UHGV virus genome: UHGV-1451962
Source of the DNA: a virus
Length of the DNA: 64,000 bases
Strand: one strand, 5' to 3'
The position numbers and the translations under genes are program-made. The notes under the pieces were generated by a model. The model saw only the letters and a list, made by a program, of their open reading frames with translations, did no database searches and had not been told where the DNA came from. This document shows, piece by piece, positions 2,713 through 63,998 of the stretch (within the stretch, counting starts at the first letter, position 1; each line of letters starts with the position of its first letter).

Positions 2713-2995
2713 ATCCAGATATTTTTTTCTGATGACCTAGACGTGCGAAATTTCAACCCTAAAACGGGCCTTTCTATCTCTAAAATCTTTAAAGTAATTT
2801 ACCACTCACAAGGCATCTTAGAACAGAAATCACGCATAACACAAACTTCGCAATTATCCTACTTTAGGCAGTATTCAATAATCACCGCAAGTACCTTTAA
2901 TAATTCACAGGTCATTAGAAAAGCTCCTTTCCTTAATTTCTATATATATTATAACATAATTTTTTAGAAAAAACAAAAAAGAACTCTGAGTATTC

Positions 2996-3463
2996 TCAGA
3001 GTTCTTTAGTTTCTGTCACAAAGTATTTGGCATTGTAATCCACCAGAATTTTCTTAACTTGGCTACTCTCCATTTGTGTGGCACAATAAACATTAAAAAT
3101 TGAATATTTACCTACATTTTCAATATAATTATGCGGAATTGAGTTTAGTCTTTCGTGAAGTTGTTTTGTAAATTCACCGGGGACAGTCACCTCAATTCGC
3201 CACAATTTTTCTTTTCTTCCTTTTGCTTCCGCCCACTTAACCGCATACACGCCAACCAGATTACAGCCAAAGGTAACTAATACCTTCTGCCACAGAGGGA
3301 AATCCGCGACTGTGTAAATAAGAACTATATTATAATAACCATAGTACAGAGCAGAAATCATGCTTGCGGAAAATGGTGTACCATTAATAGTTACAATGCT
3401 TTTGATTGTCGAAAAAACCACATTGGCAATGGAGAGACCAATAAATAACAAGAGTAAAGACAA
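2996..3463 (-). CDS. hypothetical membrane protein
   Basis: 155 aa with several hydrophobic segments (LLLLFIGLSIANVVF..., ALYYGYYNIVLIYTV...). Confidence 0.45.
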   Translation of the reverse strand: MSLLLLFIGLSIANVVFSTIKSIVTINGTPFSASMISALYYGYYNIVLIYTVADFPLWQKVLVTFGCNLVGVYAVKWAEAKGRKEKLWRIEVTVPGEFTKQLHERLNSIPHNYIENVGKYSIFNVYCATQMESSQVKKILVDYNAKYFVTETKEL

Positions 3464-3652
3464 TTAAATACCCGCCTTTCTGCACATCACAAAGAACTCT
3501 TCCAGAGGAACCCAAGCCCCATCAATAGTAATCAATGGCCACCAATCTCCTTCACATTCTTTGTCATAGTCCATGAAGTAGTCATAGGCTTTCTGCAAAG
3601 AATCAAACTTCGCAAAATCGCCGTTGTAGCGGTCAGTAATTTTGATAATCAT
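3464..3652 (-). CDS. hypothetical protein
   Basis: 62-aa ORF abutting the neighbouring ORFs in the same orientation. Confidence 0.35.
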   Translation of the reverse strand: MIIKITDRYNGDFAKFDSLQKAYDYFMDYDKECEGDWWPLITIDGAWVPLEEFFVMCRKAGI

Positions 3653-4242
3653 TATTCTTCATCCTCCTTTTCCCAGCAAACAATATATTGTGAGTATTCA
3701 CCATTTGGTTTAAGAAATTGAACCTTATAGCCTGCTTCCTCAAGTATTTGAGTAATAATTTTTGTATCTTCTAGAAGATTAATAGTAGCAGCAAATTTTC
3801 CATCTTCTGCGGCACTTAGAAGATTAAACATAATTTGCCCAAGGGCTTCAGTGATTACTGTAGATCTTGCTTGTAGTGTTTTATCAAGCATCCCTTTAGC
3901 ATCCAACCAGTTCGTAGGTTTTCTAATTTCTATTTCTACCTTCCTTTCTCTATGGAAGAGGGCTTTTCGGCCCTCTTCTTCTTCCATAACTACACCAGCA
4001 AGAATTAAAGTGTTGCAGATGCACTGCCAAGCATAAAGACCCATATTTTGGGGAATGGCTTCCCAAATCTCAGGCCGCAACTTCTTCAGGCCAGTTAGAA
4101 GCATACCGCCCCAGTCGCCACCGCAAGCAACGCACTTGTCCAAAAACTGGCCAAAGGTAATGTTTAACGGCTCACAGCTATCAATAGCTTCAAGAACATC
4201 CTCACCCCAGTTCTTTGCGATGAAGTCTCTGCGTTCATTCAT
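3652..4242 (-). CDS. hypothetical protein
   Basis: 196-aa ORF; promoter/RBS cassette upstream at ~4250-4300. Confidence 0.5.
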   Translation of the reverse strand: MNERRDFIAKNWGEDVLEAIDSCEPLNITFGQFLDKCVACGGDWGGMLLTGLKKLRPEIWEAIPQNMGLYAWQCICNTLILAGVVMEEEEGRKALFHRERKVEIEIRKPTNWLDAKGMLDKTLQARSTVITEALGQIMFNLLSAAEDGKFAATINLLEDTKIITQILEEAGYKVQFLKPNGEYSQYIVCWEKEDEE

Positions 4243-4560
4243 ACTATCAACCTCTTTCCTTAATTTCTGTATTCATTATAGCATCTTTGCCCTGGTTTGT
4301 CAAGACCTTTTTTATTTTTTTTGAAATTTTTAAATCCCCTTTCCTTTTGTGATTATATAATAACATAATTTTGGGAAAATGTCAATAAGTAAAATTGTAC
4401 AAATCAAAAGCAGAAAAATTGTGGAAAATGTATATTGACACGAATTCGGGCCACATCCACCAAGCGCGGCCCGTCGAGTTTTGTTATTGCTTTACTTTTG
4501 CTTATAACAAGTATAGGGATAAAAAAAGGATAGTGGCTATTAACCACTATCCTTTAATAA

Positions 4561-4812
4561 TCAAACATCTTCAATTACGATATTTTCGCCGATCTCTGCT
4601 AAGTTTTGCAAAATATCTGACGCTTCTCCCACTTTTGCGGCATCAATGGTTTCGTATTTGCCAATATAACTATTAGCAGACATCACCTCCCAAATTTGAT
4701 TAAGAATGTCAGAGGCTTGCTCAAGACGATCAATTTCTTCTTGGGATAAGCGAACCTCGCATTGCTTTTCAATAACAATCATGTTCTCTTCCTCCTTATA
4801 GTTCGATCTCAT
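4561..4812 (-). CDS. hypothetical protein
   Basis: 83-aa acidic ORF. Confidence 0.4.
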   Translation of the reverse strand: MRSNYKEEENMIVIEKQCEVRLSQEEIDRLEQASDILNQIWEVMSANSYIGKYETIDAAKVGEASDILQNLAEIGENIVIEDV

Positions 4813-5140
4813 AGGTTTTGCGGATAGTAACCTTTACTTTCTTGGGTTTTTGTTTACAGCAAAATCTGTCATTGCGGACAAATTCGCCGATAGAAGATTC
4901 CTGCCATGCTGCACGATTCTTATCCTCATATCGCAAAGTCGAATACTTAGACAAAGGCAGATGCCAATCATAGACAAACTTAGCGGATTTCGGCATAGTA
5001 AACTTAGGTGAACGCTTATAATTTCTGGTATGCTCTTGCTGTCTCCGGGCTAAATCATTAGTAGTGCCTATTTTGAGAATGTAGTTGCCTTCTACATCAA
5101 AATAGTGACCTACATACAAATACTCTTTCTTTTGTTGCAT
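4796..5140 (-). CDS. hypothetical protein
   Basis: 114-aa ORF. Confidence 0.45.
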   Translation of the reverse strand: MQQKKEYLYVGHYFDVEGNYILKIGTTNDLARRQQEHTRNYKRSPKFTMPKSAKFVYDWHLPLSKYSTLRYEDKNRAAWQESSIGEFVRNDRFCCKQKPKKVKVTIRKTYEIEL

Positions 5141-5197
5141 TTACATCACCTTTTTCGTCAAAATTAGCTCTTTTTTAAGTGAAAAGGGCCAAAAACT

Positions 5198-5587
5198 TTA
5201 CTTTTTGGCCCTTTTCTGAACTAAAGTCAACTCAAAGGCGTTATTATCAACAGAAAAAGCAATCTGTCGCTCAGGATTTGCAATTTTTACATCACAAATC
5301 CCCAAAGATTCAAGAAAACCTGCAAGTTCCGCAATCAAATTTGCTTTAGTGGGGTTCTCTTTTCTTTCTCTTTTAATAGGGGTCTTGCGGTCATGCTTCT
5401 TAGTATGTTGCCCGGTAATAGTATACTTCTTTGCTACCTTTTGTTGTTCCTCGGTCAAATCCCATTCATGCGGGATGCCTTTATCAACCTCGCAGTCTGC
5501 CTTATAGATTTCTACTGCTTTTTCATAACTGCACTTGATGCCAGCTTGGATTCTTGCGATTGCTTCTTTTGCTTTGTCCAAAAACAT
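5198..5587 (-). CDS. hypothetical basic protein, paralog of 9346..9708
   Basis: shares spaced motifs with the 9346..9708 product (D.G...L.EEQ.KV.KK ... NPER.I ... F..TL). Confidence 0.5.
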   Translation of the reverse strand: MFLDKAKEAIARIQAGIKCSYEKAVEIYKADCEVDKGIPHEWDLTEEQQKVAKKYTITGQHTKKHDRKTPIKRERKENPTKANLIAELAGFLESLGICDVKIANPERQIAFSVDNNAFELTLVQKRAKK

Positions 5588-5611
5588 ACCTCCCCTCTAG
5601 GGAAGAGGGCC

Positions 5612-6034
5612 TTAGCCCTCTTCCTCTTCTACCACGGCCTGCGCCTTGTAGAAATGGGCAATACCCTTGTGGGTATCCTTGTAAGCAATACCCTCAGAGA
5701 CAAGAGCCTTGCACATAGGGGCGATACGCTGGGGAGTCAAATCTTCCAGTTCAGGAATGGCCTTGCGGAGCATTGCAATGGTCATACCATCTTCGGTCAA
5801 CTGCTCGGCAATCAGAGCCTTAAAATGCTCATTCTCAGTCTGGCGGGCAGTCTGCTTGCGGGAATTAGAACCCTTCTTAGCATCCAGCAGGCGAATTTCA
5901 TTGGAGAGGAAATCGGTCAGACCCTCAAAGTCAAAACCTTCGTCCTCACGGCCTTCGCACAGTTCCACCAGCTCAATCAGAGACTGGAAACGCTCACGCT
6001 TAGTAATTCTCTTGTTAGTATTTTCCATAAACAC
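5612..6034 (-). CDS. hypothetical protein, paralog of 9768..10124
   Basis: C-terminal region 'TARQTENEHFKALIAEQL...IPELEDLTPQRIAPMCKALVSEGIAYKDTHKGIAHFY' parallels 'TATQTENARLIEVIADTL...IPELNGFTPQKVGPMLKKLVETGRATRDTNKGKAYY'. Confidence 0.5.
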   Translation of the reverse strand: MFMENTNKRITKRERFQSLIELVELCEGREDEGFDFEGLTDFLSNEIRLLDAKKGSNSRKQTARQTENEHFKALIAEQLTEDGMTIAMLRKAIPELEDLTPQRIAPMCKALVSEGIAYKDTHKGIAHFYKAQAVVEEEEG

Positions 6035-6369
6035 CTATCTCGCTTTTGGTTTTTAAGAGTTTGTCCTTCTCTTGATTACATGCTTATTATAGCATGTTTC
6101 TTGGGGTTTGTCAAGAGGTTTCGCAAACTTTTCACAAGATTTACGGCTTCCAGAGCATGTTGGGCAATAACAATTACCACATGATATAAGACTTACCACT
6201 TGATGTATTTCGTTTACTTCCTATACTTTCTCACAGGTCGGCCGCCCTAGGATTTCTTGGGCTACTTCCTCCTGACATTATTTATTATATCAGATTTCAC
6301 CCAAATTGCAATAGGCAAATTGTACAAAAAGCGGGATTTTCCTCAAATAAATTTTGTGCAGTTTAACTC

Positions 6370-6398
6370 TTGACAAATTTTGTGCCGCGTGGTATAAT
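6370..6398 (+). promoter_or_regulatory. near-consensus promoter on the plus strand, opposite to the surrounding genes
   Basis: TTGACA 6370-6375, 17-nt spacer, TGgTATAAT with TATAAT at 6393-6398. Confidence 0.5.
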
Positions 6399-6404
6399 TG
6401 AAAT

Positions 6405-6513
6405 TTCGGCGCTCCACAGTCGTGGGCGCCGCGCCATTGTATCATAAAGCTGCGGTTTTGTCAATAGGCAAAATGTACAAAAAAATGAGGGAAAAATCCC
6501 TCATTTCCTTTTC
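6405..6513 (+). ncRNA. candidate small RNA / antisense transcript
   Basis: downstream of promoter 6370-6398: GC-rich hairpin 'cggcgctccacagtcgtgggcgccg', no credible ORF, then hairpin 'atgagggaaaaatccctcat' (6486-6505) followed by a T-rich stretch. Confidence 0.25.
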
Positions 6514-6777
6514 CACTTTGTCAAGATCAGCTTTCAGACTGTCAAGTTCCTGCTCTTTGTCCATAGTTTTTAATTCAAGCGCAGTCTCTAAATAACGTAA
6601 GTAATTCTGATAGTCATCGGTGCTATACTCAGAAAAAGTGAACCCTTTTCCTCTGAACTTATCTCTTACACGAGTGACACTTTTATGACATTGAACACGT
6701 TCTTCATACACAGCATAACTATCAGTTCCTTTCTTAATTTCTGTATTTATTATAGCGTCTTTGCTTTGAATCGTCAA
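6442..6777 (-). CDS. doubtful ORF (true product probably shorter)
   Basis: ORF runs through its own promoter/RBS cassette (6725-6795) and uses a TTG start; first in-frame ATG is far downstream. Confidence 0.2.
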   Translation of the reverse strand: MTIQSKDAIINTEIKKGTDSYAVYEERVQCHKSVTRVRDKFRGKGFTFSEYSTDDYQNYLRYLETALELKTMDKEQELDSLKADLDKVEKEMRDFSLIFLYILPIDKTAAL

Positions 6778-6805
6778 TAGACAAATTGCACAAAGTGGAA
6801 GATTT

Positions 6806-7339
6806 TTATAACTTCATTCCATTTGTTTGAAATGCTTTAGCTACTTTATCAAAGCAATCTTCCATTTTAAGAATTTCCTGCTTCTTACTTTCTATCTGAA
6901 AAAGAAGATTTACATAAACTTCCTGAAGGTATTCCCGATACCCACTAGCATTGAAGGCGAAAGTATCTCGATAACAAATAGTAATATCACTTCTATTATA
7001 GTGGATGCCTAATTCTTCCCCACCATTAGCCGCGATCAGAGCTTCCTTTGCCGCCACCAGCAGCTCTCTGTATTCCTTATACTTCATAAGAAGCTCGCCG
7101 GCACGGTTTGTTACATAAGGAGCAGTTTCTCTGCATCTAGGCCCATTTGTATCATAGACCGGTGCTTTACCAACCACTTTGATGATATTGTGGTTGAAGA
7201 GAGTTTCCGCCTTAGAGCGTCCCTTACCACGAGCCGCATCATATTTATCAGAGGTGAAGGGTTTATCCCCGAACAGTTTAACAACCTGAGCAGCACCTTC
7301 CAGAACGCTATTGCAATTTTTGATAGAGAACATAATCAT
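6806..7339 (-). CDS. hypothetical protein
   Basis: ORF track start at 7342 is TTG; ATG at 7339 sits 5 nt after the RBS (complement of 'cctttcct'); promoter at 7366-7394. Confidence 0.55.
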   Translation of the reverse strand: MIMFSIKNCNSVLEGAAQVVKLFGDKPFTSDKYDAARGKGRSKAETLFNHNIIKVVGKAPVYDTNGPRCRETAPYVTNRAGELLMKYKEYRELLVAAKEALIAANGGEELGIHYNRSDITICYRDTFAFNASGYREYLQEVYVNLLFQIESKKQEILKMEDCFDKVAKAFQTNGMKL

Positions 7340-7365
7340 CAATTCCTTTCCTGTTTTCTGTTGTT

Positions 7366-7394
7366 ATTATATCATGCTTTTGCTTACTTGTCAA
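7366..7394 (-). promoter_or_regulatory. sigma-A-type promoter with extended -10 (TTGACA-N17-TGaTATAAT)
   Basis: -35 is complement of 'tgtcaa' 7389-7394; -10 is complement of 'attata' 7366-7371; TG at 7373-7374. Confidence 0.6.
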
Positions 7395-7611
7395 GAGATT
7401 TTATCAAATTGCTTGTATCTGTTTCAGTAAGAATTTTTTCCATCTCTTTGACAGATAAGCTGTCTACTTTTCTCTGGAAATCTTTGAGGAGTAAATCATC
7501 CCCACAGATTTCTTCCTCAATATCTACCCACTCTTTGTAAACATGGAGTAGTAAATATTCATCAGGTTCCATCAAAGAACCGCAGACAATGTAGCCATCA
7601 TCCAAAAGCAA
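7384..7611 (-). CDS. hypothetical protein
   Basis: 75-aa ORF. Confidence 0.35.
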   Translation of the reverse strand: MLLDDGYIVCGSLMEPDEYLLLHVYKEWVDIEEEICGDDLLLKDFQRKVDSLSVKEMEKILTETDTSNLIKSLDK

Positions 7612-7986
7612 ACCAGCGTGGACAACCCCTTCAAGGTCGAGAAATAATACCTACTTTGTCATTTGCAAAACTCCCTTTTGTTTTATTTTATCAGAGCGGC
7701 GCCTACTCTGACAGCTTTCTTGTTGTTTATTACTTTGGAGCAATAGAAAAAGCTAAGAAAATCTCCGCATCACTATATGGTTTTTATTTCGTTCATGTAA
7801 AACAACAGTGCAAACAAAATTCTGTAATAATTGGGTTAGCATGGCGGCGGGTGCCTGGTAATATCTATCATTCGCTTTACTCCTTTTTATTTATTTATTT
7901 GCCACTAAAACACTTTATCACCTCCCTTGACTGTACCTGTATTATATCACAGAAGAAAAGCTTTGTCAAGCCTTTTTTGCAATTTT

Positions 7987-8385
7987 TTAATCCTTAATAA
8001 GTTCTTTGGGAATAGTCCAACCAACGGCTCGGCAATAAGCAATAACCATACCAACCGCGGGAATGAAAGTGTCATTTGTTGTGGCTGTTGCTTTTCCAGT
8101 CAGGCGATGATTATTGCTGATAACTTCGCAAACAGTAGTTCTGCCCTCAATACTGAACTTTGCAGAAGTGCCATATAACATATGAGCATTGTCCTCTAAC
8201 CACTTCTGAGCAATAGAAGCCTTGCTTTCTGCGGATTGAACATACTTACGGAGAATAATTCCATCCGAACTGGTGCAAATTTCCAGTGGGTCTCCCTCCT
8301 GAATGTGCATGTTGCGGCGGATCTCCTTGGGGATGACCACCCGGCCCAGGTCGTCGATGCGGCGCACGATACCAGTAGTTTTCAT
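7987..8385 (-). CDS. AbrB-family transition-state-regulator-like DNA-binding protein
   Basis: N-terminus 'MKTTGIVRRIDDLGRVVIPKEIRRNMHIQEGDPLEI...GIILRKY' closely matches the AbrB N-domain (MKSTGIVRKVDELGRVVIPIELRRTLGI...IILKKY). Confidence 0.75.
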   Translation of the reverse strand: MKTTGIVRRIDDLGRVVIPKEIRRNMHIQEGDPLEICTSSDGIILRKYVQSAESKASIAQKWLEDNAHMLYGTSAKFSIEGRTTVCEVISNNHRLTGKATATTNDTFIPAVGMVIAYCRAVGWTIPKELIKD

Positions 8386-8452
8386 ATTTTTTTACTTCCT
8401 TTCTTTTACTGTATTTGTATTATACCATACAGTCCGGTCTTTGTCAAGCCTT

Positions 8453-9097
8453 TTATCTATCAAAACCGCTAAAATCCAAGATGATTGGGCGGTCATTTTT
8501 GTAACCAATGTTGGATTCGTGCAGGTCATTGATTCTGTTCTCAATGACAAACTCGCAAAGAGTTTTGCAAAGTCTTTTGCCATAGATAACAAGAGCCATC
8601 TTAGCCCAAAGAGGGTCTAAGTTTCTTGCATAGCGCCCATTAGGTGCCGCTTTCTTGAAACACTTGCCCATAAGCTGCGCTTTCTGGTCACTTGCGGTTT
8701 TGACCTTAGCCTTGTACTTCTTAAAGGTTTGATAGGAACAGCCACAAACCGCAAAGTCAATTTTCTCTTGCTTGATGAAGTTAATCCCATCTATCGTGCA
8801 GAAAAGCTCGGTCTTGGGGAAGAACATGCCCAAACCTGCTTTAACAGCTTTATTGTACATGTCAACCTCTTTAAGAGCTTCGTCATCAGTAAACTCATCA
8901 GGGTCAGAGTATGTCCACTTGATAACAAAGTCGGCTTTGTGAGGGATGAGACAAATTTTGCTGGAACCATAATCTATAGCGGCTTCACTTCCAAGCTTGA
9001 TTTCTCTCATTCTGCTCTGAATTTCCCAATCGGTCATGGAAGGGTCAATCCTTAACTCTTCAAGCCAATGAAGAACAGTCTGTTCCATCTTTGTCAT
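8453..9097 (-). CDS. hypothetical protein
   Basis: strong RBS (complement of 'ctcctccc' 9103-9110) precedes ATG at 9097 (MTKMEQ...); ORF track start 9166 is probably too far upstream. Confidence 0.5.
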   Translation of the reverse strand: MTKMEQTVLHWLEELRIDPSMTDWEIQSRMREIKLGSEAAIDYGSSKICLIPHKADFVIKWTYSDPDEFTDDEALKEVDMYNKAVKAGLGMFFPKTELFCTIDGINFIKQEKIDFAVCGCSYQTFKKYKAKVKTASDQKAQLMGKCFKKAAPNGRYARNLDPLWAKMALVIYGKRLCKTLCEFVIENRINDLHESNIGYKNDRPIILDFSGFDR

Positions 9098-9123
9098 GTT
9101 ATCTCCTCCCTTACTGTGATTAT

Positions 9124-9152
9124 AGTATAACACGGCAGGTCTTATTTGTCTA
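9124..9152 (-). promoter_or_regulatory. promoter (TAGACA-N17-TGtTATACT)
   Basis: read on the minus strand from 9152 down to 9124. Confidence 0.4.
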
Positions 9153-9211
9153 TTGGCGAAATGCACAAATTCGGAATTTTTGTCTGCCTAGTTTTTATGC
9201 ACTTTTGCCCA

Positions 9212-9240
9212 TTGACAAAAGTCGGATTACCTGGTATAAT
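9212..9240 (+). promoter_or_regulatory. near-consensus promoter on the plus strand, opposite to the surrounding genes
   Basis: TTGACA 9212-9217, 17-nt spacer, TGgTATAAT with TATAAT at 9235-9240. Confidence 0.5.
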
Positions 9241-9246
9241 TGAAAT

Positions 9247-9351
9247 GCGGCAGCGCTTGACCATGCGCGGGCCGCCAAACATTTACCATTGAGAAGTATT
9301 GGGCAAAAAAGAAAACCGGCCTATAAAAATAAGCCGGTTTTGTTATTATTT
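9247..9351 (+). ncRNA. candidate small RNA
   Basis: GC-rich hairpin 'gcggcagcgcttgaccatgcgcgggccgcc', no ORF, ends at bidirectional terminator hairpin 9312-9341 (aaaaccggc/gccggtttt) plus T-run. Confidence 0.25.
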
Positions 9352-9708
9352 TCTAGGAGCGCTTAATGTAATTTTGAAACGTCTTTCATTAAAAACTATC
9401 TCAATTTCTCGCTCTGGGTTATTGATGGTAGTTTCAATTTCAAGTTGTTCAAGAGATTCCGCAATAATCTCAATCAAGCGATGTTTGTCATTGTCAACCT
9501 TGCGCTGTCGGGGAGCATTCATAGTATATTTGCCTTTCTCTTTGCCGGATAACCGCATTTTCTTTTCTACTTTCTTTTGTTCATCAGTAAGTGGGAAAAG
9601 GTCTGCACCTTTATCTATTGCTTCATCATCAGCAATAACTGCCAAAGCTTGTTTTCTATCAAGGTCTAACACCTTCTGAAGATGTTTAACCCTAGCTTCA
9701 TCTATCAT
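9346..9708 (-). CDS. hypothetical basic protein, paralog of 5198..5587
   Basis: 120-aa ORF; see paralog motifs. Confidence 0.5.
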   Translation of the reverse strand: MIDEARVKHLQKVLDLDRKQALAVIADDEAIDKGADLFPLTDEQKKVEKKMRLSGKEKGKYTMNAPRQRKVDNDKHRLIEIIAESLEQLEIETTINNPEREIEIVFNERRFKITLSAPRK

Positions 9709-9732
9709 TAAACACCATCCTTTTTGAGAAAA

Positions 9733-9757
9733 TAAAGAGGGGCATTAAGCCCCTCTT
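9733..9757 (-). terminator. intergenic hairpin between 9768..10124 and 9346..9708
   Basis: stem aaagaggggc/gcccctcttt with 5-nt loop. Confidence 0.4.
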
Positions 9758-9767
9758 TATTTAATTA

Positions 9768-10124
9768 TTACACCATAGTGTAGTATGCCTTGCCCTTGTT
9801 GGTGTCACGAGTGGCTCGGCCAGTTTCAACCAGCTTCTTGAGCATGGGGCCAACCTTCTGAGGGGTAAAACCGTTCAGCTCAGGAATGGTCTTGGTAATG
9901 TCGGAAATGGTGAAAGCTTCGCCCTTGGGCAGAGTGTCAGCAATCACTTCAATCAGACGTGCGTTCTCAGTCTGAGTTGCAGTAGGCTTACCGCTACCAC
10001 GGCTCTTATTCTCCTGCTGATGAAGCAGAATCTCAATCTTGGCACGAACATCGGCAGGAATCTCGCAGTTGTCCAGAACATACTGAAGAGCGCCCTTGTT
10101 AGTAATCTTCTTCTCGTTAGTCAT
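9768..10124 (-). CDS. hypothetical protein, paralog of 5612..6034
   Basis: 118-aa ORF; see paralog motifs. Confidence 0.5.
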   Translation of the reverse strand: MTNEKKITNKGALQYVLDNCEIPADVRAKIEILLHQQENKSRGSGKPTATQTENARLIEVIADTLPKGEAFTISDITKTIPELNGFTPQKVGPMLKKLVETGRATRDTNKGKAYYTMV

Positions 10125-10233
10125 AATATCAATTCCTTTCTGTGCGGTAGGTCGCTACCCTAATTGTTAAGGAAGTGGGGAGGGTTTTCTCTCCCTCACT
10201 TCTCTTATATTATATCATTTTCCTTTTGTTTTG

Positions 10234-10941
10234 TCAAGCGGTTTTTTGATTTTCAAAAAGTTTTTTCCGCATTTTCTTCTTTTGCCGATAGCAGTAAATC
10301 ATAATCTCCCGCTCAATCCGCACATCGTCAAGACCTTTATGTTCTTCCTGAAAAGTGGGGTCTTTGATGATGAATCTATACAGATTTTCTGCTGTTGCTG
10401 AGAGTTTACCAGTTTTGGTTAAGAAACCGTGTTGTTCACAGAACCTTTTATAGGTAGGCATCTTTAGAATAACATCTCTTGCCATTTTGAGAGTATCCCA
10501 AATATCGGTACCATAGGGGAACCAATACCGATATTTACTCTTAGTAGTCCAGCGTTGAAGTAAATTCAATGCGTTCAGGTCGAATCTTGCATTGTGGGCG
10601 ACTACCTCTGTAATACCATATTCTGCCATGTCTGCAAGCATAGCTTGTCGAATCTGGTAAGTGTTAGCTATTTGTCGGATGCCCTGTCGAATATCTTCCA
10701 GATACTGGGGAATCTTTTCCGCATAATAGGCGGATTTCATAAGCTCACTTTCATCAAAGAAAATATCTCGATTAACAAAGGATTGTTCCTTGTAGATATT
10801 CCCTCTTGTATCCATAACACACCACCCGCAATCATAGACAAGAACTGAGGTCATGTCTAATCGGCCTTTTTGGTCAGTGATGGTGTTCGCTGTCTCAGTG
10901 TCCAGAAGCAGAACGTAATGTCTGCGCTTGTCAATGCTCAT
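10234..10941 (-). CDS. DnaQ-like (DEDDh) 3'-5' exonuclease
   Basis: Exo I motif 'LLLDTETAN' and Exo III motif 'VVAHNARFDLNAL'. Confidence 0.65.
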   Translation of the reverse strand: MSIDKRRHYVLLLDTETANTITDQKGRLDMTSVLVYDCGWCVMDTRGNIYKEQSFVNRDIFFDESELMKSAYYAEKIPQYLEDIRQGIRQIANTYQIRQAMLADMAEYGITEVVAHNARFDLNALNLLQRWTTKSKYRYWFPYGTDIWDTLKMARDVILKMPTYKRFCEQHGFLTKTGKLSATAENLYRFIIKDPTFQEEHKGLDDVRIEREIMIYCYRQKKKMRKKLFENQKTA

Positions 10942-10974
10942 GTTGCATCTACCTCTTCCTTAATTTCTGTACTT

Positions 10975-11003
10975 ATTATATCAGATTTTTTCTCATTTGT
11001 CAA
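10975..11003 (-). promoter_or_regulatory. sigma-A-type promoter with extended -10 (TTGACA-N17-TGaTATAAT)
   Basis: -35 is complement of 'tgtcaa' 10998-11003; -10 is complement of 'attata' 10975-10980; RBS complement of 'cctcttcc' 10953-10960. Confidence 0.6.
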
Positions 11004-11022
11004 GAACTTTTTGGCTCCCTGC

Positions 11023-11478
11023 TTAAAGCAGGGAAGCCAAGAAATCAATGATGTCACAAGTTTCAGGATTGACAGTTTCTCCCAAATGCCAACTGTCACG
11101 AACTTTCTTATTATCATCAATAAGAATTGCCTTAGATGCTTTTCTACGAACAGCATCCGCTTTAGTGGCTCCATACTTTAGACCATGAAAGTGGTCATAG
11201 GGGAAACCCCATTTCAAGAGCCAAGCCTTTTTAGCTTCTCGCACAGCCTTTGCATACTCAGGGCTGCTTTCTTTAGAAAGCCAAGTGATGATTGCAATCT
11301 CCCAACCAGCCTGTTTTAACTTGTTAATAAGCTCGTTAAGCTTATCCACGTCCCACATGGGTTTAGCTTCCAGGTAAGGGCTTGTATCTTCCTTCCGCAG
11401 CTTAGACAGCCAACCATTAACCCCATACAGGTCAGCAATAGTGCCGTCCATATCAAAAGCCAACATTTTGTCAGTCAT
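11023..11478 (-). CDS. HAD-superfamily phosphatase / nucleotidase-like protein
   Basis: HAD motif I 'FDMDGTIAD' near the N-terminus; start taken at the MTDK ATG (an in-frame TTG at ~11487 is also possible); ORF track start 11586 runs through the promoter. Confidence 0.55.
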   Translation of the reverse strand: MTDKMLAFDMDGTIADLYGVNGWLSKLRKEDTSPYLEAKPMWDVDKLNELINKLKQAGWEIAIITWLSKESSPEYAKAVREAKKAWLLKWGFPYDHFHGLKYGATKADAVRRKASKAILIDDNKKVRDSWHLGETVNPETCDIIDFLASLL

Positions 11479-11536
11479 AAGTGTCAACTTCTTTCCTTTA
11501 TTTCTATGGTAATTATACCACGGTAAGGCCCAAATG

Positions 11537-11722
11537 TCAAGCCTTAATTTCTTCAATGTCAAGAAGAATTTCACCAGTAGAATCATCTACCAAGTAATAC
11601 ATTGTAGTAGCATACTGAGCTAACCTATGAAAGAAATCCTCTGCCAATGAAAAGGAATCAAAAGGCCCGATAATTTCTTCATCGCCAACATGATAGATAG
11701 AATAAGTCTGCTTCATATGCAA
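11537..11722 (-). CDS. hypothetical protein
   Basis: 61-aa ORF. Confidence 0.3.
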   Translation of the reverse strand: MHMKQTYSIYHVGDEEIIGPFDSFSLAEDFFHRLAQYATTMYYLVDDSTGEILLDIEEIKA

Positions 11723-11731
11723 TACCTCCTA

Positions 11732-11889
11732 TCAAAAGATATGAATGAGAGTTTCATTCCCATTCTCTTCCAGATGACACTCATAGACAGAGCCTTTCTT
11801 GCGGGTTGCGTTCCGCATTGCGATACCCTTGTTATCAAAGTGTATCTGCCAACCATTGGGGAAAACTACCAGCCAGTCACGGTATTCGG
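11732..11889 (-). CDS. hypothetical small protein
   Basis: RBS (complement of 'ggcctccttttg') precedes 'MTEYRDW...'; the longer ORF-track version (to 12124) crosses promoter sequence. Confidence 0.35.
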
Positions 11890-12049
11890 TCATACTTTTG
11901 GCCTCCTTTTGTTTTCTGTAATTATTATAACAAAAATTTTTAAGAAATTCAATAATCAATTTTGATGATGTTTTGTCGCTATACTTTTTATAAACAAATG
12001 CCATTTCGGGATGAATACTTCCGGGTAAAATCACCAAACTTTCCTCTAA

Positions 12050-12115
12050 ATTTTTGTGCAATTTGCGCATTGACAGAATTTCGGCGCACACTGGGAGGTC
12101 ATGGTCGTGTGCGCG
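12050..12115 (+). other. third copy of the GC-rich hairpin element (cf. 6405-6440, 9247-9280)
   Basis: 'gaatttcggcgcacac...gtgtgcgcgccgccgc' shares the 'aatttcggcgc...gcgcc' core with the 6400 element. Confidence 0.3.
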
Positions 12116-12185
12116 CCGCCGCAATTATTATACCATACTTTTGCTTTGTTGTCAATAGATAAATTGAACAAAAAATTTTTATTTA

Positions 12186-12203
12186 TTTTTTTTTTTTTTT
12201 TTT
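12186..12203. repeat. 18-nt homopolymer T tract
   Basis: uninterrupted run of 18 T on the plus strand. Confidence 0.9.
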
Positions 12204-12250
12204 ACTGCTAGAAGCCTAGAAGTTTCATCATATAAGCATATAGCAAAAAT

Positions 12251-12273
12251 AAAAAGGGCCGCAAGGCCCTTTT
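12251..12273. terminator. bidirectional rho-independent terminator
   Basis: 'aaaaagggccgcaaggcccttttt': GC stem gggcc/ggccc, loop gcaa, flanked by A-run and T-run. Confidence 0.6.
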
Positions 12274-12570
12274 CACTTCCAAGTTTTTTCAAGTGGATTT
12301 TTGTTTATTTTACCGGAACCTTAATGGCCCACAAGCTTTCTAAACAGTCAAGCCCTATGTAAGACTCGCTCGCTTTTTCAAAAAGCTTTTTCTCCACTTC
12401 CTCCAAAGTCATGCAGAGATATTCTTCAAAGAAGTCAGGAGAAGCGTCTTTCTGTATCCTCGCAATCATCTCTTTTATTGTTGTTGCTTTGTCATAGGCT
12501 CATTACCATACTGGTCAGAAACTATAATGACGTAAGCATCTTTCTTTATAATAATCAACTCCTTTTCTTT

Positions 12571-12903
12571 TTACCACATGTCAACGTAGTGCTGTTTGTC
12601 ATTGGGATACTTGTGCTTAACAAGCGTGGCACATTCCTCATCATCGGTCGCAAGTCTGAGTTTGCTATCCACCAGAGCCACCAGCTCAGGAGCAGCTTCC
12701 TTGTAAAGAACTTCCAGCAGTTCTTTCAGAGCGCCTTTACCATAATAGCGGTAGTCCTCAGCAGTAATCTTCCAGACCATGATTTTCTCAGGGTCATAAC
12801 CGCAGTTGGGATAGTAGAGAGTCAAGTCTCCATCGTGAAGCACATAAGCGCTTTCATAGTAGGTTGCGGTGTACTGACTGTCGAATAGTTCCTTGTTAGT
12901 CAT
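12571..12903 (-). CDS. hypothetical protein
   Basis: 110-aa ORF with promoter/RBS cassette upstream. Confidence 0.55.
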   Translation of the reverse strand: MTNKELFDSQYTATYYESAYVLHDGDLTLYYPNCGYDPEKIMVWKITAEDYRYYGKGALKELLEVLYKEAAPELVALVDSKLRLATDDEECATLVKHKYPNDKQHYVDMW

Positions 12904-12934
12904 CTTTTGTTTCCCCTTTTTTTATCTTGATTAT

Positions 12935-12963
12935 ATAATACCATAATTTTGAGAAAACGTCAA
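12935..12963 (-). promoter_or_regulatory. promoter (TTGACG-N17-TATTAT)
   Basis: almost identical to the promoter upstream of 3652..4242 ('ttttcYcaaaattatgKtattatataatca'). Confidence 0.5.
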
Positions 12964-13054
12964 TAAGTAAAAATGCACAAATTAAGAATAAAAATTTGTA
13001 CAATACAAACAAAAGAAAAAGGAAGGCCGCAAAACCTTCCTTTTTCACTGCTGT

Positions 13055-13420
13055 TTAGAACAAATCTTGAAGCTGTTGAATAGCTTCATCAATATTGCAC
13101 CAGTTACCAGTGTGTTCATTGAGCACCAAGAGGGCTTCTTCTCCCGGAGTAAGAGAAGGAATTTTACAGTTGAAGCTAATGAAATAGCGCTTGAGCAATT
13201 CAACGGCTTCTTTATTACCATCGCACAAGATAGCAATAATAGGTGCAGGATTAGCTTTAAGGTTGAGCTTGACTTCGCCGAGCTTATCATACAGCTTGAA
13301 GCTATCCTCGCAACGCTTCGCCATTTCTTCCATCTCATGCAAGTTGCAGCTGTCATAGTCCTCAAAAACCTCACCGCAATACTCACAGAAGTAGACTGTC
13401 TTTTTCAACATAAAAATCAT
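13055..13420 (-). CDS. hypothetical Cys-containing (zinc-binding-like) protein
   Basis: 'CEYCGEVFEDYDSCNLHE' near the N-terminus. Confidence 0.45.
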   Translation of the reverse strand: MIFMLKKTVYFCEYCGEVFEDYDSCNLHEMEEMAKRCEDSFKLYDKLGEVKLNLKANPAPIIAILCDGNKEAVELLKRYFISFNCKIPSLTPGEEALLVLNEHTGNWCNIDEAIQQLQDLF

Positions 13421-13477
13421 CCTTTCTTTTATTATGGTCTTATTATACCACAGACTAAGCTTCTTGTCAAGACTTTT

Positions 13478-13650
13478 TTACAAACATTCAACCACTTCCC
13501 AAATCTGCTGATACTCTTCATAAGAGTTGGCGAAATCATTCTTACTGGCTTCATCGCGGCCCTCTTCTTTAATCCATTCCTTCCACTTGTCAAGGATCGC
13601 CTTGTTAGCTTTGTCCATCTTAACACCAATGATCTTCTTGATGTTCTTCA
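13478..13650 (-). CDS. hypothetical small protein
   Basis: RBS (complement of 'cccctttcctttt') precedes ATG of 'MKNIKKIIG...'; ORF track start 13726 overlaps the promoter. Confidence 0.4.
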
Positions 13651-13893
13651 TTTGTTTTATCCCCTTTCCTTTTGTAATTATATAATAACACACTTGCCGC
13701 AATAGGTCAATAGGCATACTGCACAATTCGGGATCCCAATTCTCTCTCTAAATTTAGCTATTTTGACTATTGATTTTGAGCAGACTTTGTGGTATACTGA
13801 TTCGGAAAGTTGCCTTGTAAAACGAAGACATTCGTTTATAACAAGTATGTTAAACAAAAGGAAAGAGATAAGCTAAGCTTACCTCTTCTCCTA

Positions 13894-14109
13894 TCATACT
13901 ACTTCATACTCATCATACTTCTTAGCCAAGACTAATACTTCCTGATATATCTTCTTTGGTATAATGTAAGCCCTCCAACGCAGGTCGCCATTAGGTTTGA
14001 AAGAAGTCTTTCTCCAACCAAAGAAGCATCTCCATAGAAAGCTTTTGCCCTCACAATACATTTCAATAAAATCTATCATACATTCATTGTCTATCCAGTA
14101 TTTTTTCAT
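13894..14109 (-). CDS. hypothetical protein
   Basis: 71-aa ORF. Confidence 0.35.
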   Translation of the reverse strand: MKKYWIDNECMIDFIEMYCEGKSFLWRCFFGWRKTSFKPNGDLRWRAYIIPKKIYQEVLVLAKKYDEYEVV

Positions 14110-14309
14110 ACTTCTCCAACCTCTCTTTTATTTTTAACCTTACAAAGTTCAATCTTGATTGCCTGACCATCAGGAAAGACTAAGCACTTGCGCAAACCAG
14201 AAGGAAAGCGAAACCATTGAACTTTAGCCCACTGCCAACTTTCTCCCTGGTAGTTGTTTCGCCATGTCTTAACAGGTGAGCAAGCATAGAACTCAAAAGT
14301 CTTTTTCAT
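14106..14309 (-). CDS. hypothetical protein
   Basis: 67-aa ORF overlapping the next gene start by 4 nt (coupled arrangement). Confidence 0.35.
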   Translation of the reverse strand: MKKTFEFYACSPVKTWRNNYQGESWQWAKVQWFRFPSGLRKCLVFPDGQAIKIELCKVKNKREVGEV

Positions 14310-14415
14310 TTGATCTTTCCTCCTTTTACTATCTATAGTATACCATACCTTAACCAGAATGTCAATACCTTTTTCATTTATTTATTTATAAAATAAAAAA
14401 GAAAAATGGTTCTGC

Positions 14416-14763
14416 TCATTTAAGAGCAGAACCATTCCAGAAGCCAAGAATCATGTCATCATAGACAAAACCTGGTGTAGCATTGTCATCAATAGCAATG
14501 AGAACGTCCTCACCTTTCACAAGGCCATCATCATCAATGGCGTACAGGTTGCCATCACGCATGTCTTTCAATGTCACACATCCATCATCATGAGTTGCAG
14601 TAACAGTAGCGCGAACCAGACGAACAGTATTCATACCATAGTGGATGCTGTTTGTTGCACAGTATCTGGCATTTTCAGCAGGAGTGCTAAGAGCGCAAGC
14701 AGAAGTAGTGAGAGCAGAGATAACGATTGCCAGAACAGCGATGATAGAGAAGAACTTTTTCAT
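14416..14763 (-). CDS. secreted protein / possible lipoprotein
   Basis: N-terminal signal peptide 'MKKFFSIIAVLAIVISALTTSACA' with a lipobox-like L-T-T-S-A-C. Confidence 0.5.
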   Translation of the reverse strand: MKKFFSIIAVLAIVISALTTSACALSTPAENARYCATNSIHYGMNTVRLVRATVTATHDDGCVTLKDMRDGNLYAIDDDGLVKGEDVLIAIDDNATPGFVYDDMILGFWNGSALK

Positions 14764-15104
14764 AGGTCATTGACCCCTTTCCTTAATTTCTGTATTTATT
14801 ATACCATCAAGACAGCCTTTTGTCTATTGACACATTGAACAAAAGAAAAAGAAATTAAAAGTTCTTCTTTGTGCATTTTGCTGAAGAATAATTTTGTTTA
14901 ATTCGCCTATTGACAAGACCATTTTTCTTTTGATTAATGAATAGTTGTTTACAGAAGATACTGTTTGATGGGGCCTTTGTGGGGTTAATGGATATTTACC
15001 AATGAAAGATAGTTTAATGGTTTGGCGTACTCCGGGGTAGTTTTCGGGAAAAAAATTATATTTGTTATTAAAAACCATTTGGCCTGGACACTTCTCTCTC
15101 TAAG

Positions 15105-15240
15105 TCAATTTTAAATTTAAAAAACGAATTTTTCTAAATCAATTTCAAATTTAAAAAACGACTTTCCATAAACTATTTTCAAATTTAAAAAACGAATTTT
15201 TCTAAATCAATTTTAAATTTAAAAAACGAATTTTTTAAAA
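15105..15240. repeat. 4 tandem copies of a ~34-bp repeat
   Basis: 'tcaattttaaatttaaaaaacgaatttttctaaa' at 15105-15138, 15139-15172 (variant), 15173-15206, 15207-15240. Confidence 0.85.
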
Positions 15241-59402: not shown

Positions 59403-60051
59403 ATTTTAATTCTATGGCTTTAATTTCCTTATAATTTTTAGCAGTATAAATTTGTGTTTTATATTGTTGCATTTTTTTATAATAAGGATAAACAAAATCA
59501 GAAATAGCTAAAGCTAAAGCAGTCAAATTTTCAACTGTCCAAGATGTACATTCTTCTTGGCGAGCATGCCATTCTAATCTAGGATTCTCTGCTCCAGCCT
59601 GAACTGCCATAGAATATTGATTCATATTTAGGCTAATTTCTGATTGATCTTCTTCTGTAACTCCATATTGCTTTCCATCAATCCAAGTCAAAGGATTATT
59701 AATGAGGAAATTAGCGAAAGCTTTTTTATTTTCTTCTTGTTTCATTTTTTGATATTCTTCTAAAGAATAGTAATATGTTAATTCATTTTTTTCATTATCA
59801 TATTTATAAAAATTAGGTTCATAATCTTCTGGAATATTACCATCAAAAGATAAGATTCTTACTGCATCAATAGAACCTGTCATATCTGAATTAGCCAAAA
59901 TGAAATGGCTATTGCAATCTGAGCCTATTACTCCTGTAGCTTCACCTTCCGAGCAAGCAATGACAATACTTGGGTTGGATTGTAATTTGATGTAGCGGAT
60001 TTCCGCAAGGATATCGACTACTATATTTTCTCTATTGATTAATAAATACAT
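59392..60051 (-). CDS. hypothetical protein downstream of the DGR reverse transcriptase
   Basis: 219-aa ORF whose start overlaps the RT stop. Confidence 0.4.
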   Translation of the reverse strand: MYLLINRENIVVDILAEIRYIKLQSNPSIVIACSEGEATGVIGSDCNSHFILANSDMTGSIDAVRILSFDGNIPEDYEPNFYKYDNEKNELTYYYSLEEYQKMKQEENKKAFANFLINNPLTWIDGKQYGVTEEDQSEISLNMNQYSMAVQAGAENPRLEWHARQEECTSWTVENLTALALAISDFVYPYYKKMQQYKTQIYTAKNYKEIKAIELKYEN

Positions 60052-61307
60052 TATAATATTTCAACTCCTTTAAATAATGAATGGAAATAATTATCAAGAT
60101 TTTGTATAATATAAAAAGTAGTACCTTTATTTATATGTTCTCTAAAACCTCGATATGATTCTTGAATTTCTATATCAGTTATTTTACCTTGTAGCCAAAG
60201 TTGGTGCATTTTTCTCATTTTTCTATATTGTCGCTTTATTTTCTTTTTAAATGGAGTTTGAATAATTTTATTCGTATTAGTTAAATAAAAATCCCATTTT
60301 AAATATTTAAATGGATTATGTTTATCCGAACGTCTTTTATGAGGATAATTATTTTTATCTAGTTTTATTGGACTAATTTTAATTATTTTAGTTTTTCTTT
60401 TGTTACATTTTAAATGTATTTTATTTAATTCATTTTCAATTTTATTAAGACATTCTTTTAAATAATCTTTGTCATTATGCAAAATATAAATATCGTCCAT
60501 ATAACGTCCATAATATTTTAAATGCAAATGCTCTTTTGCATAATGGTCAATTCCATTTAATGCCAATAAAGCTAATAATTGAGATGCTTGACTACCTAAA
60601 CCTAAACTTTTATGATTAAATTCATAATAAGTACAATTTTTATAAAATTGTTTAGGATAAATTATCTTATATTTTTGTTTTTTGATGATATAGTATTGTT
60701 TATTAGGAATAGGAACTGTATCTTTTGTGACTGAAAAACAAAAGGTATCAATAATATAATCAATTAATTTAAATACTCGTTTTTCTTTAATATAATGTTT
60801 TGCCATTTGCTTTAAAGAATTATGGTCTATTGAATCAAAAAATTTTTGAATATCAATTCTTAAACCATAAAAAGATTTTCCTAAACCATATGTTCTGTGC
60901 GCTGCTTGTAAATGTTTACGCACTTCTAGCAAAGCAAAATCAATTCCTTTTCCTTTTAATGTAGCACAATTATCATAAATAAATTTTGGAGTTAGTTCTG
61001 GAATAAGAACTTGCGAACATAATGTATTTTGTGCCAATCTGTCATAAATATGGCACGCTCTTATATCTCTGGGTTTGCCCCGCTCAATTATACTAAAACT
61101 GTTAAAAACTAATTGTTCATAACTGTCATTTTCTAATTGTTCTTTAAGCGTTAAGATGTTATTTAATCTATTTTCTTCAAAATTAACTGTACTATCTTTC
61201 CATCTTACGTTTCGGCAAATAGAATAAGAAGAATCATAAAAAGCGTCAAAATTACAAAAACGCTGGAAAAGATTTTCTTCTATAAAAAATTCTCCTTTTT
61301 TTATCAT
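60051..61307 (-). CDS. DGR reverse transcriptase
   Basis: RT motif 5 'YGRYMDD' and 'LGLGSQ' (SQ motif typical of DGR RTs); sits next to TR/VR repeats showing adenine-specific mismatches. Confidence 0.85.
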   Translation of the reverse strand: MIKKGEFFIEENLFQRFCNFDAFYDSSYSICRNVRWKDSTVNFEENRLNNILTLKEQLENDSYEQLVFNSFSIIERGKPRDIRACHIYDRLAQNTLCSQVLIPELTPKFIYDNCATLKGKGIDFALLEVRKHLQAAHRTYGLGKSFYGLRIDIQKFFDSIDHNSLKQMAKHYIKEKRVFKLIDYIIDTFCFSVTKDTVPIPNKQYYIIKKQKYKIIYPKQFYKNCTYYEFNHKSLGLGSQASQLLALLALNGIDHYAKEHLHLKYYGRYMDDIYILHNDKDYLKECLNKIENELNKIHLKCNKRKTKIIKISPIKLDKNNYPHKRRSDKHNPFKYLKWDFYLTNTNKIIQTPFKKKIKRQYRKMRKMHQLWLQGKITDIEIQESYRGFREHINKGTTFYIIQNLDNYFHSLFKGVEIL

Positions 61308-61693: not shown

Positions 61694-61726
61694 CGCGATA
61701 TTTTAGAATTTAACCAAATAAAAAAA

Positions 61727-62369: not shown

Positions 62370-63998
62370 TTATCCAATAACGAAAGCGGGCGCGAGGTAA
62401 CGGTAGTTGGCGTAGTAGGTAAAGTCCGCACCACCATCAGAGTCGACACGGCACACATAGCCCGTGTAGTCCGAGTAGTAGTTGCGAGACCGCTCCCAAT
62501 ACCATTTGGAATCTCCTGAACTGTTACCATTAGCATCTTGAATGTTTTTTATACGGGAGCTGTCACTTGTGTAATAATCATAAGCAGCATTATATCCTTT
62601 AGTACATTCTGCATTGGAAACAGTAGAATTAGCAGTGCTGATTGGAGAATAACTATCTAATCCCATTTCTCTCTCAGAAGGAATCCAAACAGTTTCGTTA
62701 TTATAACTAACATTAGCACTTCTATTATCATCCCAATTATCGCAAGTACCTTTAGATACTGTTTTTATAGATGCTTTAGCAGCACAAGCATTATAAAAAT
62801 TTTGACAATAACTTCTAGCATTAGAACCAATCCATTGTGCGCTATTATCACCAAAAGTAGTCATATTCGGCAAGAGATAAACACTATGAAAAGCTAAAGT
62901 TTTATCTCCATCTTTGTCATAGCCAATACAACGCATTGTAACAGCATTTGCTCCTAAAACATTAGTAGATAAATTCATCTTTTTAGTTTTACCAACTAAA
63001 GCTTGACGTTCTGAAGCAGAAGAATTGTTAAGCCAAGACTTTAAGCCAGCCCACCAAGAAGCATCTCCCGCAGCACTCTCATTTCCCCAAGTCCAATATG
63101 TAGCAGTAGCAGTAATTTTTTTATTCGCGGGAGTTGTATAATTGGTACTGGCTGCTATTGATACAGTAATAGTAGCAGTTCCCGCGGTTGTACCATTGCC
63201 TTTAATGGTAATTGTTTTACCGCTTACTGTTGCTGAAGCCACATTAGAATTAGTAGAAGTTACAGAAATTGTACCAGTAGAATTAGTGGTCACAGTAACT
63301 TTTACACCAGTAGAATAATTAGATGCGTCAATAGAAACAGTAGAAGTGCTTAGACTTAATGTTCCTGTTGCTTTTTGAATAGACCAATCAACATTTTTCG
63401 CGGTTGTTGTCTTATCAGGCCATCTGTAATTATTTTTAGGAGTAAAAGTAGCTGTATATTTTCCTGCATTAATTCCCGATGTAGTTCCTCCAATAGTCAT
63501 GTAACTTGTATTATAATTTGACCAATTTGGACTTTGCGAATTGGCGTTATAAGTTAAAGTTCCAGTTTGAGAAGGAATAGGAACTGTTTTTCTTTCTACT
63601 GTTACAGAAAAAGTAGTAGTTTTAGTAATACTATTTTCTGTATAAGAAACAGTAATTGTTTGAGTACCAACTGTATTTAAAACAGAAGGTGAAGTTGTCC
63701 AACCAGAAACAGTAGCGGTTTTACCATCAGAATAAGTGGCAGTAACAGACATTCCGGCAGATTCAAATGTCTCGCCATATTCATAAATTGTCTTAGTTGG
63801 TTTTGTGCTTGTGATGCTGGTTAGTGCATGGATAACAGTAACTGCTTGCTCGGCGGTACAAGTAACTCCTCCTTCAGAGTAAGTAATAGTAACTTTAGTT
63901 ACTCCATCAGTTAAAGGAGAAGGTGTTACAGTATATCCAGTTACCGCAGTAGAAGAAACAACAATATTATCAATGGCATAATTGGCAGTTATAACCAT
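62370..63998 (-). CDS. DGR target (variable) protein with Ig-like repeats; N-terminus probably beyond the window
   Basis: Big_2-like segments (e.g. 'GTISVTSTNSNVASATVSGKTITIKGNGTTAGTATITVSIAAS'); C-terminal 40 residues encoded by VR; stop TAA is complement of 62370-62372. Confidence 0.8.
   Translation of the reverse strand: MVITANYAIDNIVVSSTAVTGYTVTPSPLTDGVTKVTITYSEGGVTCTAEQAVTVIHALTSITSTKPTKTIYEYGETFESAGMSVTATYSDGKTATVSGWTTSPSVLNTVGTQTITVSYTENSITKTTTFSVTVERKTVPIPSQTGTLTYNANSQSPNWSNYNTSYMTIGGTTSGINAGKYTATFTPKNNYRWPDKTTTAKNVDWSIQKATGTLSLSTSTVSIDASNYSTGVKVTVTTNSTGTISVTSTNSNVASATVSGKTITIKGNGTTAGTATITVSIAASTNYTTPANKKITATATYWTWGNESAAGDASWWAGLKSWLNNSSASERQALVGKTKKMNLSTNVLGANAVTMRCIGYDKDGDKTLAFHSVYLLPNMTTFGDNSAQWIGSNARSYCQNFYNACAAKASIKTVSKGTCDNWDDNRSANVSYNNETVWIPSEREMGLDSYSPISTANSTVSNAECTKGYNAAYDYYTSDSSRIKNIQDANGNSSGDSKWYWERSRNYYSDYTGYVCRVDSDGGADFTYYANYRYLAPAFVIG
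62383..62491 (-). repeat. DGR variable repeat (VR) at the 3' end of the target gene
   Basis: 109-bp match to TR with 23 mismatches, 22 at TR adenines (coding sense); encodes '...SRNYYSDYTGYVCRVDSDGGADFTYYANYRYLAP' followed by 'AFVIG' and the stop. Confidence 0.85.

Follow-up and report, generated by a model that had tools for sequence, protein, structure and literature searches.

In the early region of an uncultured gut phage, a run of 18 consecutive T residues proved to be a true hot spot of slippage and a site at which assemblies break. The run is a poly(dA:dT) simple-sequence repeat located in the AT-rich, non-coding DNA that forms the spacer of a terminator/promoter cassette, and it is an ordinary slippage-prone homopolymer of a well-known kind, placed upstream of a promoter. 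On balance, we consider it probable that this slippage-prone repeat belongs to a loosely constrained promoter-upstream spacer, where it may also serve as a far-upstream A-tract with a modest, graded effect.

A Single Long A/T Run

The tract occupies positions 12186-12203 of the window, i.e., the entire stretch of 64,000 nt that was analyzed, and is bordered by A12185 and A12204; it reads T18 on the plus strand (...AAAAAATTTTTATTTA-T18-ACTGCTAGAAGCC...) and A18 on the transcribed (minus) strand. A homopolymer census of the 64-kb window identified it as the sole A/T run longer than 9, the runner-up having a length of 9. A mononucleotide run this long is far beyond compositional expectation, with ∼1e-4 (independent-base model) or ∼9e-4 (first-order Markov model) T runs of 18 or more expected per window. 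The first-pass annotation had reported an 18-nt poly(T) here, which proved exact in length and position. As the same tract and flanks recur in independent ENA and Logan assemblies, the tract was not created by one assembly.

The Tract Changes Length in Place

Relatives were gathered by looking up exact matches to proteins of the window and to homologues of the 53-aa protein encoded downstream of the tract (the look-up with the 235-aa protein encoded further downstream gave no additional contig). This gave contigs of the same species of phage from 25 samples of gut or wastewater origin, 25 being an upper bound on independence as some ENA and Logan contigs may share samples. The 18 contigs that span the site carry A runs of 6, 8, 8, 9, 9, 10, 11, 15, 18 (four contigs), 19 (three contigs), 20 (two contigs), and 27, lengths that in short-read assemblies are uncertain by 1-2 bases. 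Three more contigs start within the run (two with at least 19 A and one with at least 25 A), and five more end at most ∼55 nt from it, which brings the contigs that break in or near the tract to 8 out of 25. The contig ends fall at differing depths within the run, and long contigs cross it.

Length polymorphism between conserved flanks, as expected of a hypermutable simple-sequence repeat, is thus found here with a range of 6 to 27 in the 18 spanning contigs. Two contigs (L012 and L013) show no mismatch to a third (L018) over 1000 nt of flank, yet A18 stands against at least A25. In a relative that is 86% identical (L021), the flanks are conserved on both sides and the run is only A6. Long runs occur in all three haplogroups that are ∼96-97% identical to the window (at least 18, or 27), with A27 and at least 19 in the "TACCTA" haplogroup, and 18-20 in the "TATCTA" haplogroup. 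The neighboring T run varies between 5 and 8 among relatives and the copy number of the TAAA(T) unit is also variable, with no pattern of compensation between A-run and T-run lengths seen among the relatives. Two control A6 runs, at 10247 and 10266, have a length of 6 in all of the 11-13 relatives that could be scored. Since the same flanks are kept with differing lengths while the control runs are stable, the tract is real and its length has changed in place. It mutates far faster than point substitutions build up. The annotation's description of the tract as slippage-prone and as a common site of assembly error is therefore borne out on both counts, by the differing tracts between identical flanks beside invariant A6 controls, and by the 8 of 25 contigs that stop in the tract or at most ∼55 nt away.

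Searches further afield did not extend this sampling. Exact-pattern scans for the tract flanks in IMG/VR and JGI metagenomes returned 0 matches, with a pattern that does match the retrieved loci, and a search of IMG/VR for related loci with the 110-aa upstream protein found no relatives. The search with the 151-aa protein encoded downstream of the tract yielded seven distant loci (53-66% amino-acid identity) in which gene order is different, and no orthologous spacer was found in these seven.

The Tract Lies Within a Terminator/Promoter Cassette

The features surrounding the tract are listed in Table 1. The first-pass annotation had the tract flanked by a terminator on one side and a conserved promoter box on the other, a layout that we recover (hairpin at ∼12246-12279, promoter P12155, box at 12150-12175). 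It had further proposed that the tract might modulate read-through or promoter spacing. As to spacing, only the distance between far-upstream DNA and the promoter could change; the core -35/-10 spacing is unaffected, since the tract, ∼30 nt upstream of the -35, is not part of the -35/-10 spacer and sits beyond the upstream edge of the canonical UP-element window.

Table 1. Features of the cassette around the poly(T) tract, in order of minus-strand transcription. Positions refer to the window; for numbering relative to P12155, the start site was set 7 nt past the -10.
Feature	Position	Strand	Description
Upstream 54-aa ORF	12305..12469	-	C-terminal remnant of an 88-aa gene
Intrinsic terminator	∼12246..12279	-	AAAAGGGCC-UUGC-GGCCCUUUU and U-rich tail; core GGGCC-TTGC-GGCCC with A and T runs on either side
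Conserved 41-nt block, terminator to tract	12204..12244	-	GCTATATGCTTATATGATGAAAC-TTCTAGGCTTCTAG-CAGT
Homopolymer	12186..12203	-	T18 on plus strand, A18 on transcribed strand; ∼-66 to -83 of P12155
Rest of compound A/T repeat	12170..12185	-	TAAAT-A5-T6; ∼-50 to -65
Repeated promoter box, 25 nt	12150..12175	-	TTTTTTGTTCAATTTATCTA+TTGACA (also written TTTTTGTNCAATTTNNCTA+TTGACA); contains the -35 (12155..12150)
Perfect promoter P12155	12127..12155	-	Sigma-A/sigma-70-type TTGACA-17-TATAAT with extended -10 TG; predicted start ∼12120-12122
GC-rich hairpin	12082..12118	-	Heads the predicted P12155 transcript (5' end); GCCGAAATT comes next
Inverted box copy	12051..12075	+	Decayed reverse-oriented promoter, -10 missing
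Second promoter	11924..11952	-	TTGAAT-17-TATAAT with TG, directly before the first gene
First downstream gene	11732..11893	-	53-aa ORFan with a strong AAGGAGG ribosome-binding site

The terminator closes the upstream gene cassette. The 121-nt stretch that contains its hairpin folds with a z-score of -4.0, and its loop is inverted (GCAA) in some relatives. Depending on the strain, the gene upstream encodes 88, 85, 73, or 116 aa, or is absent, and the sequences become homologous again from the terminator on. A 13-nt deletion relative to L012 frameshifts the 88-aa gene (12470-12560, minus strand) in this genome, as it does in contig L008. The tract starts 43 nt past the terminator hairpin, or 47 nt past its GC core. 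The 41-nt block lying in between is ∼85% retained in the relative with 86% identity, and between 40 and 70 nt separate it from the -35, depending on the relative. Its direct repeat, TTCTAGGCTTCTAG (motif TTCTAGRCTTCTAG, 12208-12221, minus strand), has its only other exact copy at 2400-2413. Both copies (minus strand) have an A-run/T-run and a promoter downstream and CATATG-like repeats nearby, and may represent a protein-binding site.

The promoter box (TTTTTGTRCAATTTGCCTA) abuts the 5' side of the -35 TTGACA in a subset of the early promoters. At least 11 copies are present in the early region in both orientations (span 2500-15000; e.g., 6306-6330, 6459-6483, 12051-12075, 12150-12174, and 14891-14915), versus ∼0.75 expected at the same mismatch level, and the box may be a candidate operator for an early regulator. 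Five related GC-rich hairpins are encoded on the minus strand (2440-2478, 4443-4478, 6399-6435, 9245-9280, and 12082-12118), each followed by GCC(C)GAAAT and positioned at the head of an early gene cassette; none of the five has an Rfam match. An alignment revealed a compensatory A-T to G-C change in the hairpin at 12082-12118 in relatives, and this structure is thus probably selected. The 232-nt leader as a whole folds no better than shuffled sequences (z = -0.23), and we therefore do not claim any large structured RNA. Downstream of the 53-aa ORFan, genes follow for a 59-aa ORFan, a HAD-like protein of 151 aa, and an exonuclease-like protein of 235 aa, the majority with a promoter of their own. 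The genes flanking the cassette have no significant Pfam match, the 151-aa protein scoring below the curated cutoff.

An Early Module in a Large Gut Phage

The window belongs to a large, uncultured, siphovirus-like gut phage of Firmicute type. The sign of its GC skew flips at ∼18-19 kb; 2.3-18.7 kb constitutes a minus-strand early-type module, and from 25 kb on the plus strand encodes large ORFs, with a portal protein (phrog_2739) among other proteins of virion size. This portal protein shares 38% identity with its counterpart in phAss-1, an uncultured phage of the human gut, and ∼30% with those of large Enterococcus phages, and is not T4-related. The predicted hosts of phAss-1 are Clostridia, and its group, which comprises the nearest described relatives, recodes TAG as Gln and carries suppressor tRNAs (PMC10607447). 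In the whole window, long ORFs are intact under the standard code and a search for tRNA genes found none, so that recoding is not evident. An Rfam search of the window (gathering and E-value thresholds) gave nothing credible; a "Phe_leader" match (29.5 bits versus a cutoff of 55) was discarded, its score coming from the T run. Megablast of positions 9000-15000 against phage and plasmid collections gave no match.

Composition delimits the early module as a sharp domain within one phage genome, with a G+C content of about 40% (∼38-42%) at 2.3-14.8 kb versus about 29% (∼26-33%) elsewhere, i.e., in the structural/late part. The module holds 83 promoter-like sites where 42 are expected and 25 terminator-like sites where 9.6 are expected. 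About 18-19 promoters deviate at no more than one position from TTGACA-17-TATAAT with the extended -10 TG (TTGACA-17-TGnTATAAT), and these mostly precede small ORFs without significant family match.

Several other elements of the window deserve mention. Two perfect plus-strand promoters (12/12, with TG) at 6370-6515 and 9212-9345 oppose the minus-strand early transcription, each heading a unit of promoter, GC hairpin, and bidirectional terminator (∼110 and ∼100 nt, z = -5.7 and -3.4, respectively); both units are candidates for small antisense RNAs. The unit at 6370 is head-on to P(-)6464, with predicted starts only ∼25 nt apart. A 132-aa early protein (7987-8385, minus strand) with an N-terminal AbrB/MazE/SpoVT-type domain (...GIVRRIDDLGRVVIPKEIRR...; PF04014, precomputed on the identical gene of contig L027) is a candidate for a DNA-binding regulator that acts on the early promoters. 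A 34-nt tandem repeat (15099-15239, 4.2 copies) lies upstream of the early module, and its length differs between the window and L008, a contig that is otherwise 99.98% identical. The far end of the window (60051-63998, minus strand) carries a complete diversity-generating retroelement, with a reverse transcriptase gene (60051..61307; PF00078, phrog_1423) and 108-nt template (61586-61693) and variable (62384-62491) repeats that are 80% identical, nearly all of the mismatches pairing an A of the template with any base in the variable repeat. The latter forms the C-terminus of a 542-aa Big_3-domain protein (62370..63998).

Similarity to Known Systems

UP elements and upstream A-tracts stimulate sigma-70/sigma-A promoters through contacts with the alpha-CTDs of RNA polymerase. 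The Escherichia coli UP consensus, NNAAAWWTWTTTTNNAAAANNN, is AT-rich at -40 to -60 (quoted in PMC4081817). Compared to this E. coli consensus by eye, the region from -59 to -38 of P12155 agrees at 10 of the 15 specified positions (9/11 in the distal and 1/4 in the proximal part). As in UP elements, AT-rich DNA is found upstream of the -35 of a strong promoter, with A5T6 (-50 to -60) accounting for the 9/11 of the distal subsite, and several other early promoters of the phage carry AAAAAAGGC ahead of the -35 (-46 to -38). A-rich DNA is found just ahead of the strong promoters of this phage in general, with A at ∼-41 in 13 of 19 (region ∼-41 to -46) and A runs of up to 8, and in distant relatives A/T runs of 9 are situated directly upstream of consensus promoters in three of five cases. 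Unlike UP elements, A18 is located outside the canonical -40 to -60 window; it is a homopolymer without phasing, and relatives can do without it (A6).

A long A/T homopolymer upstream of a -35 is also known from sabA of Helicobacter pylori, where a promoter-proximal T-tract that varies from T5 to T28 between strains by slipped-strand mispairing acts as a rheostat (Aberg et al., 2014; PMC4081817). The phage tract shares with it the position upstream of the -35, the variability between strains (A6-A27 here), and the nearby UP-like AT-rich DNA. However, in sabA the tract is directly next to the -35, and how it affects expression and the binding of RNA polymerase has been measured (PMC4081817), whereas the phage tract is neither adjacent to nor inside the core promoter but ∼30 nt further upstream, beside a perfect consensus promoter.

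The cassette as a whole resembles the PeSLs, the promoter/stem-loop cassettes of T4-type phages (Arbiol et al., 2010, PMC2839356; Comeau et al., 2014, PMC4122927). Both combine a repeated terminator stem-loop, an AT-rich region, and a strong sigma-70-like early promoter that flank small ORFans in a plastic region, and in both the gene content upstream of the cassette varies between strains with the junction at the terminator. Repeated promoter/terminator units and gene-replacement junctions are thus present in a phage that is not a T4-type myovirus. It is in contrast of a Firmicute-type, siphovirus-like lineage with another host, and its cassettes contain an extra conserved box and a GC hairpin after the promoter. 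As its portal protein shows it to be unrelated to T4, the likeness to PeSL is one in the way of working and not of family membership. Hypermutable poly-G tracts are found in genes of Campylobacter phages, where they switch reading frames. These are likewise phage-borne homopolymers with length heterogeneity at the population level, but they reside in coding genes, and the tract presented here is intergenic.

Alternative Explanations

Polymerase, basecalling, or assembler errors could in principle have produced the run or its variation, as the contigs breaking at or near it might suggest, and the lengths of 18, 19, and 20 differ within the error range of short-read assembly. Differences of 1-2 bases are possibly such errors, but the classes of 6, 8-11, 15, 18-20, and 27 cannot be; they are accompanied by changes in TAAAT copy number and by SNPs in the flanks, and identical flanks were obtained via several pipelines and studies (ENA scaffolds, MEGAHIT k-mer, SPAdes NODE, and Logan contigs), which renders an artefact extremely improbable. 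The breaking contigs, together with the reverse transcriptase encoded by the phage, might also point to the poly(A) tail left as a scar by a mobile or retro-element, or to a physical genome end. Yet this reverse transcriptase is part of a typical diversity-generating retroelement that has its own template and variable repeats, and relatives share both flanks of the tract and differ only in run length, with neither an inserted unit nor a target-site duplication. The contig ends lie at varied depths in the run with no sharp terminus, and long contigs pass through, such that we give next to no credence to either origin. It is also very improbable that the tract controls termination or read-through, whether as the U/A tract of the neighboring terminator or by making read-through transcripts pause or slip. 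Long A/T runs can cause RNA polymerase to slip, and the tract is downstream of the terminator on the minus strand; however, the hairpin, 43 nt away, has a U-rich tail of its own, and relatives with A6 keep the same terminator. On the plus strand the run precedes the hairpin and no promoter faces it, the inverted box having lost its -10, and in this non-coding region there is no reading frame for transcript slippage to change. We also rejected an assignment as the U-tract of an intrinsic terminator, i.e., a T run 0-2 nt after the hairpin, as the run is A on the transcribed strand and at the distance given above.

The main rival, possible but unlikely, is that of an adaptive rheostat, or contingency locus, in which slippage would alter both distance and rotation between far-upstream DNA and the promoter, thereby tuning the early operon; the far-upstream DNA would be the conserved ATATG/TTCTAG direct-repeat block or a factor bound there. 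Extreme polymorphism concentrated at one site, with stable flanks and control runs, is consistent with such a locus, and so are the long runs that arose in more than one haplogroup ("TACCTA" and "TATCTA"), the conserved direct-repeat block just upstream with the second exact copy of TTCTAGRCTTCTAG at 2400-2413, and the precedent of sabA in H. pylori (PMC4081817). Raw lengths of the spacer moreover bunch near 40, 49-50, 59-61, and 70, which hints at helical phasing and might be confirmed with more genomes. The values entering the phase test (40, 42, 49, 49, 49/50, 56, 59-61, 63, and 70) however include 42, 56, and 63, which are off this pattern, and the periodicity is not significant once related contigs are collapsed into lineages (Rayleigh-type test, best R = 0.53, simulated p ∼0.17). 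Furthermore, the ∼30 nt between tract and -35 set it apart from the sabA tract, which adjoins the -35, P12155 already matches the consensus perfectly, and the first gene is preceded by a further promoter of its own. The more specific version, by which A(n)-TAAAT-A5-T(n) would be a phage contingency locus that generates subpopulations with differing P12155 strength through a re-phased direct-repeat site, appears distinctly improbable to us.

A Probable Loosely Constrained Spacer Upstream of an Early Promoter

Since lengths from 6 to 27 are tolerated and helical periodicity is not significant, a loosely constrained spacer or far-upstream A-tract is the most likely explanation. Replication slippage, i.e., slipped-strand mispairing, would lengthen and shorten the A run, whose length would be only loosely constrained because the tract lies outside the core promoter and any ORF. 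Its main role would accordingly be that of a variable spacer, and it might be regarded as an over-grown part of the AT-rich promoter-upstream region of this phage. The tract may in addition act as a far-upstream A-tract that prolongs the UP-like A5T6 and offers a narrow minor groove to the alpha-CTDs of RNA polymerase, with an effect on P12155 that would be at most modest and graded, as opposed to an on/off switch. Any effect on expression is probably modest, given that the promoter is already a perfect consensus and that most downstream genes have their own promoters. Two observations run against a mere spacer: the presence of long runs in all three ∼96-97% haplogroups could mean that they are favored and not neutral, and the variation of the neighboring T run (T5-8) next to constant A6 runs elsewhere may indicate a spacer under diversifying selection.

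Implications

Spacer lengths that differ by up to 30 nt are tolerated in the AT-rich upstream part of this phage's early-promoter cassette. In short-read assemblies of this gut phage group, the tract constitutes a reproducible break point and a site of length errors, and it could be used as a fast-evolving marker for strain tracking. To our knowledge, promoter-level rheostats have so far been described in bacteria and not in phages. If the tract were a contingency locus, P12155, the structured leader RNA, and the ORFans behind it would fire at varied strengths, and if its length does tune transcription, it would be a rare case of promoter-level simple-sequence variation in a phage.
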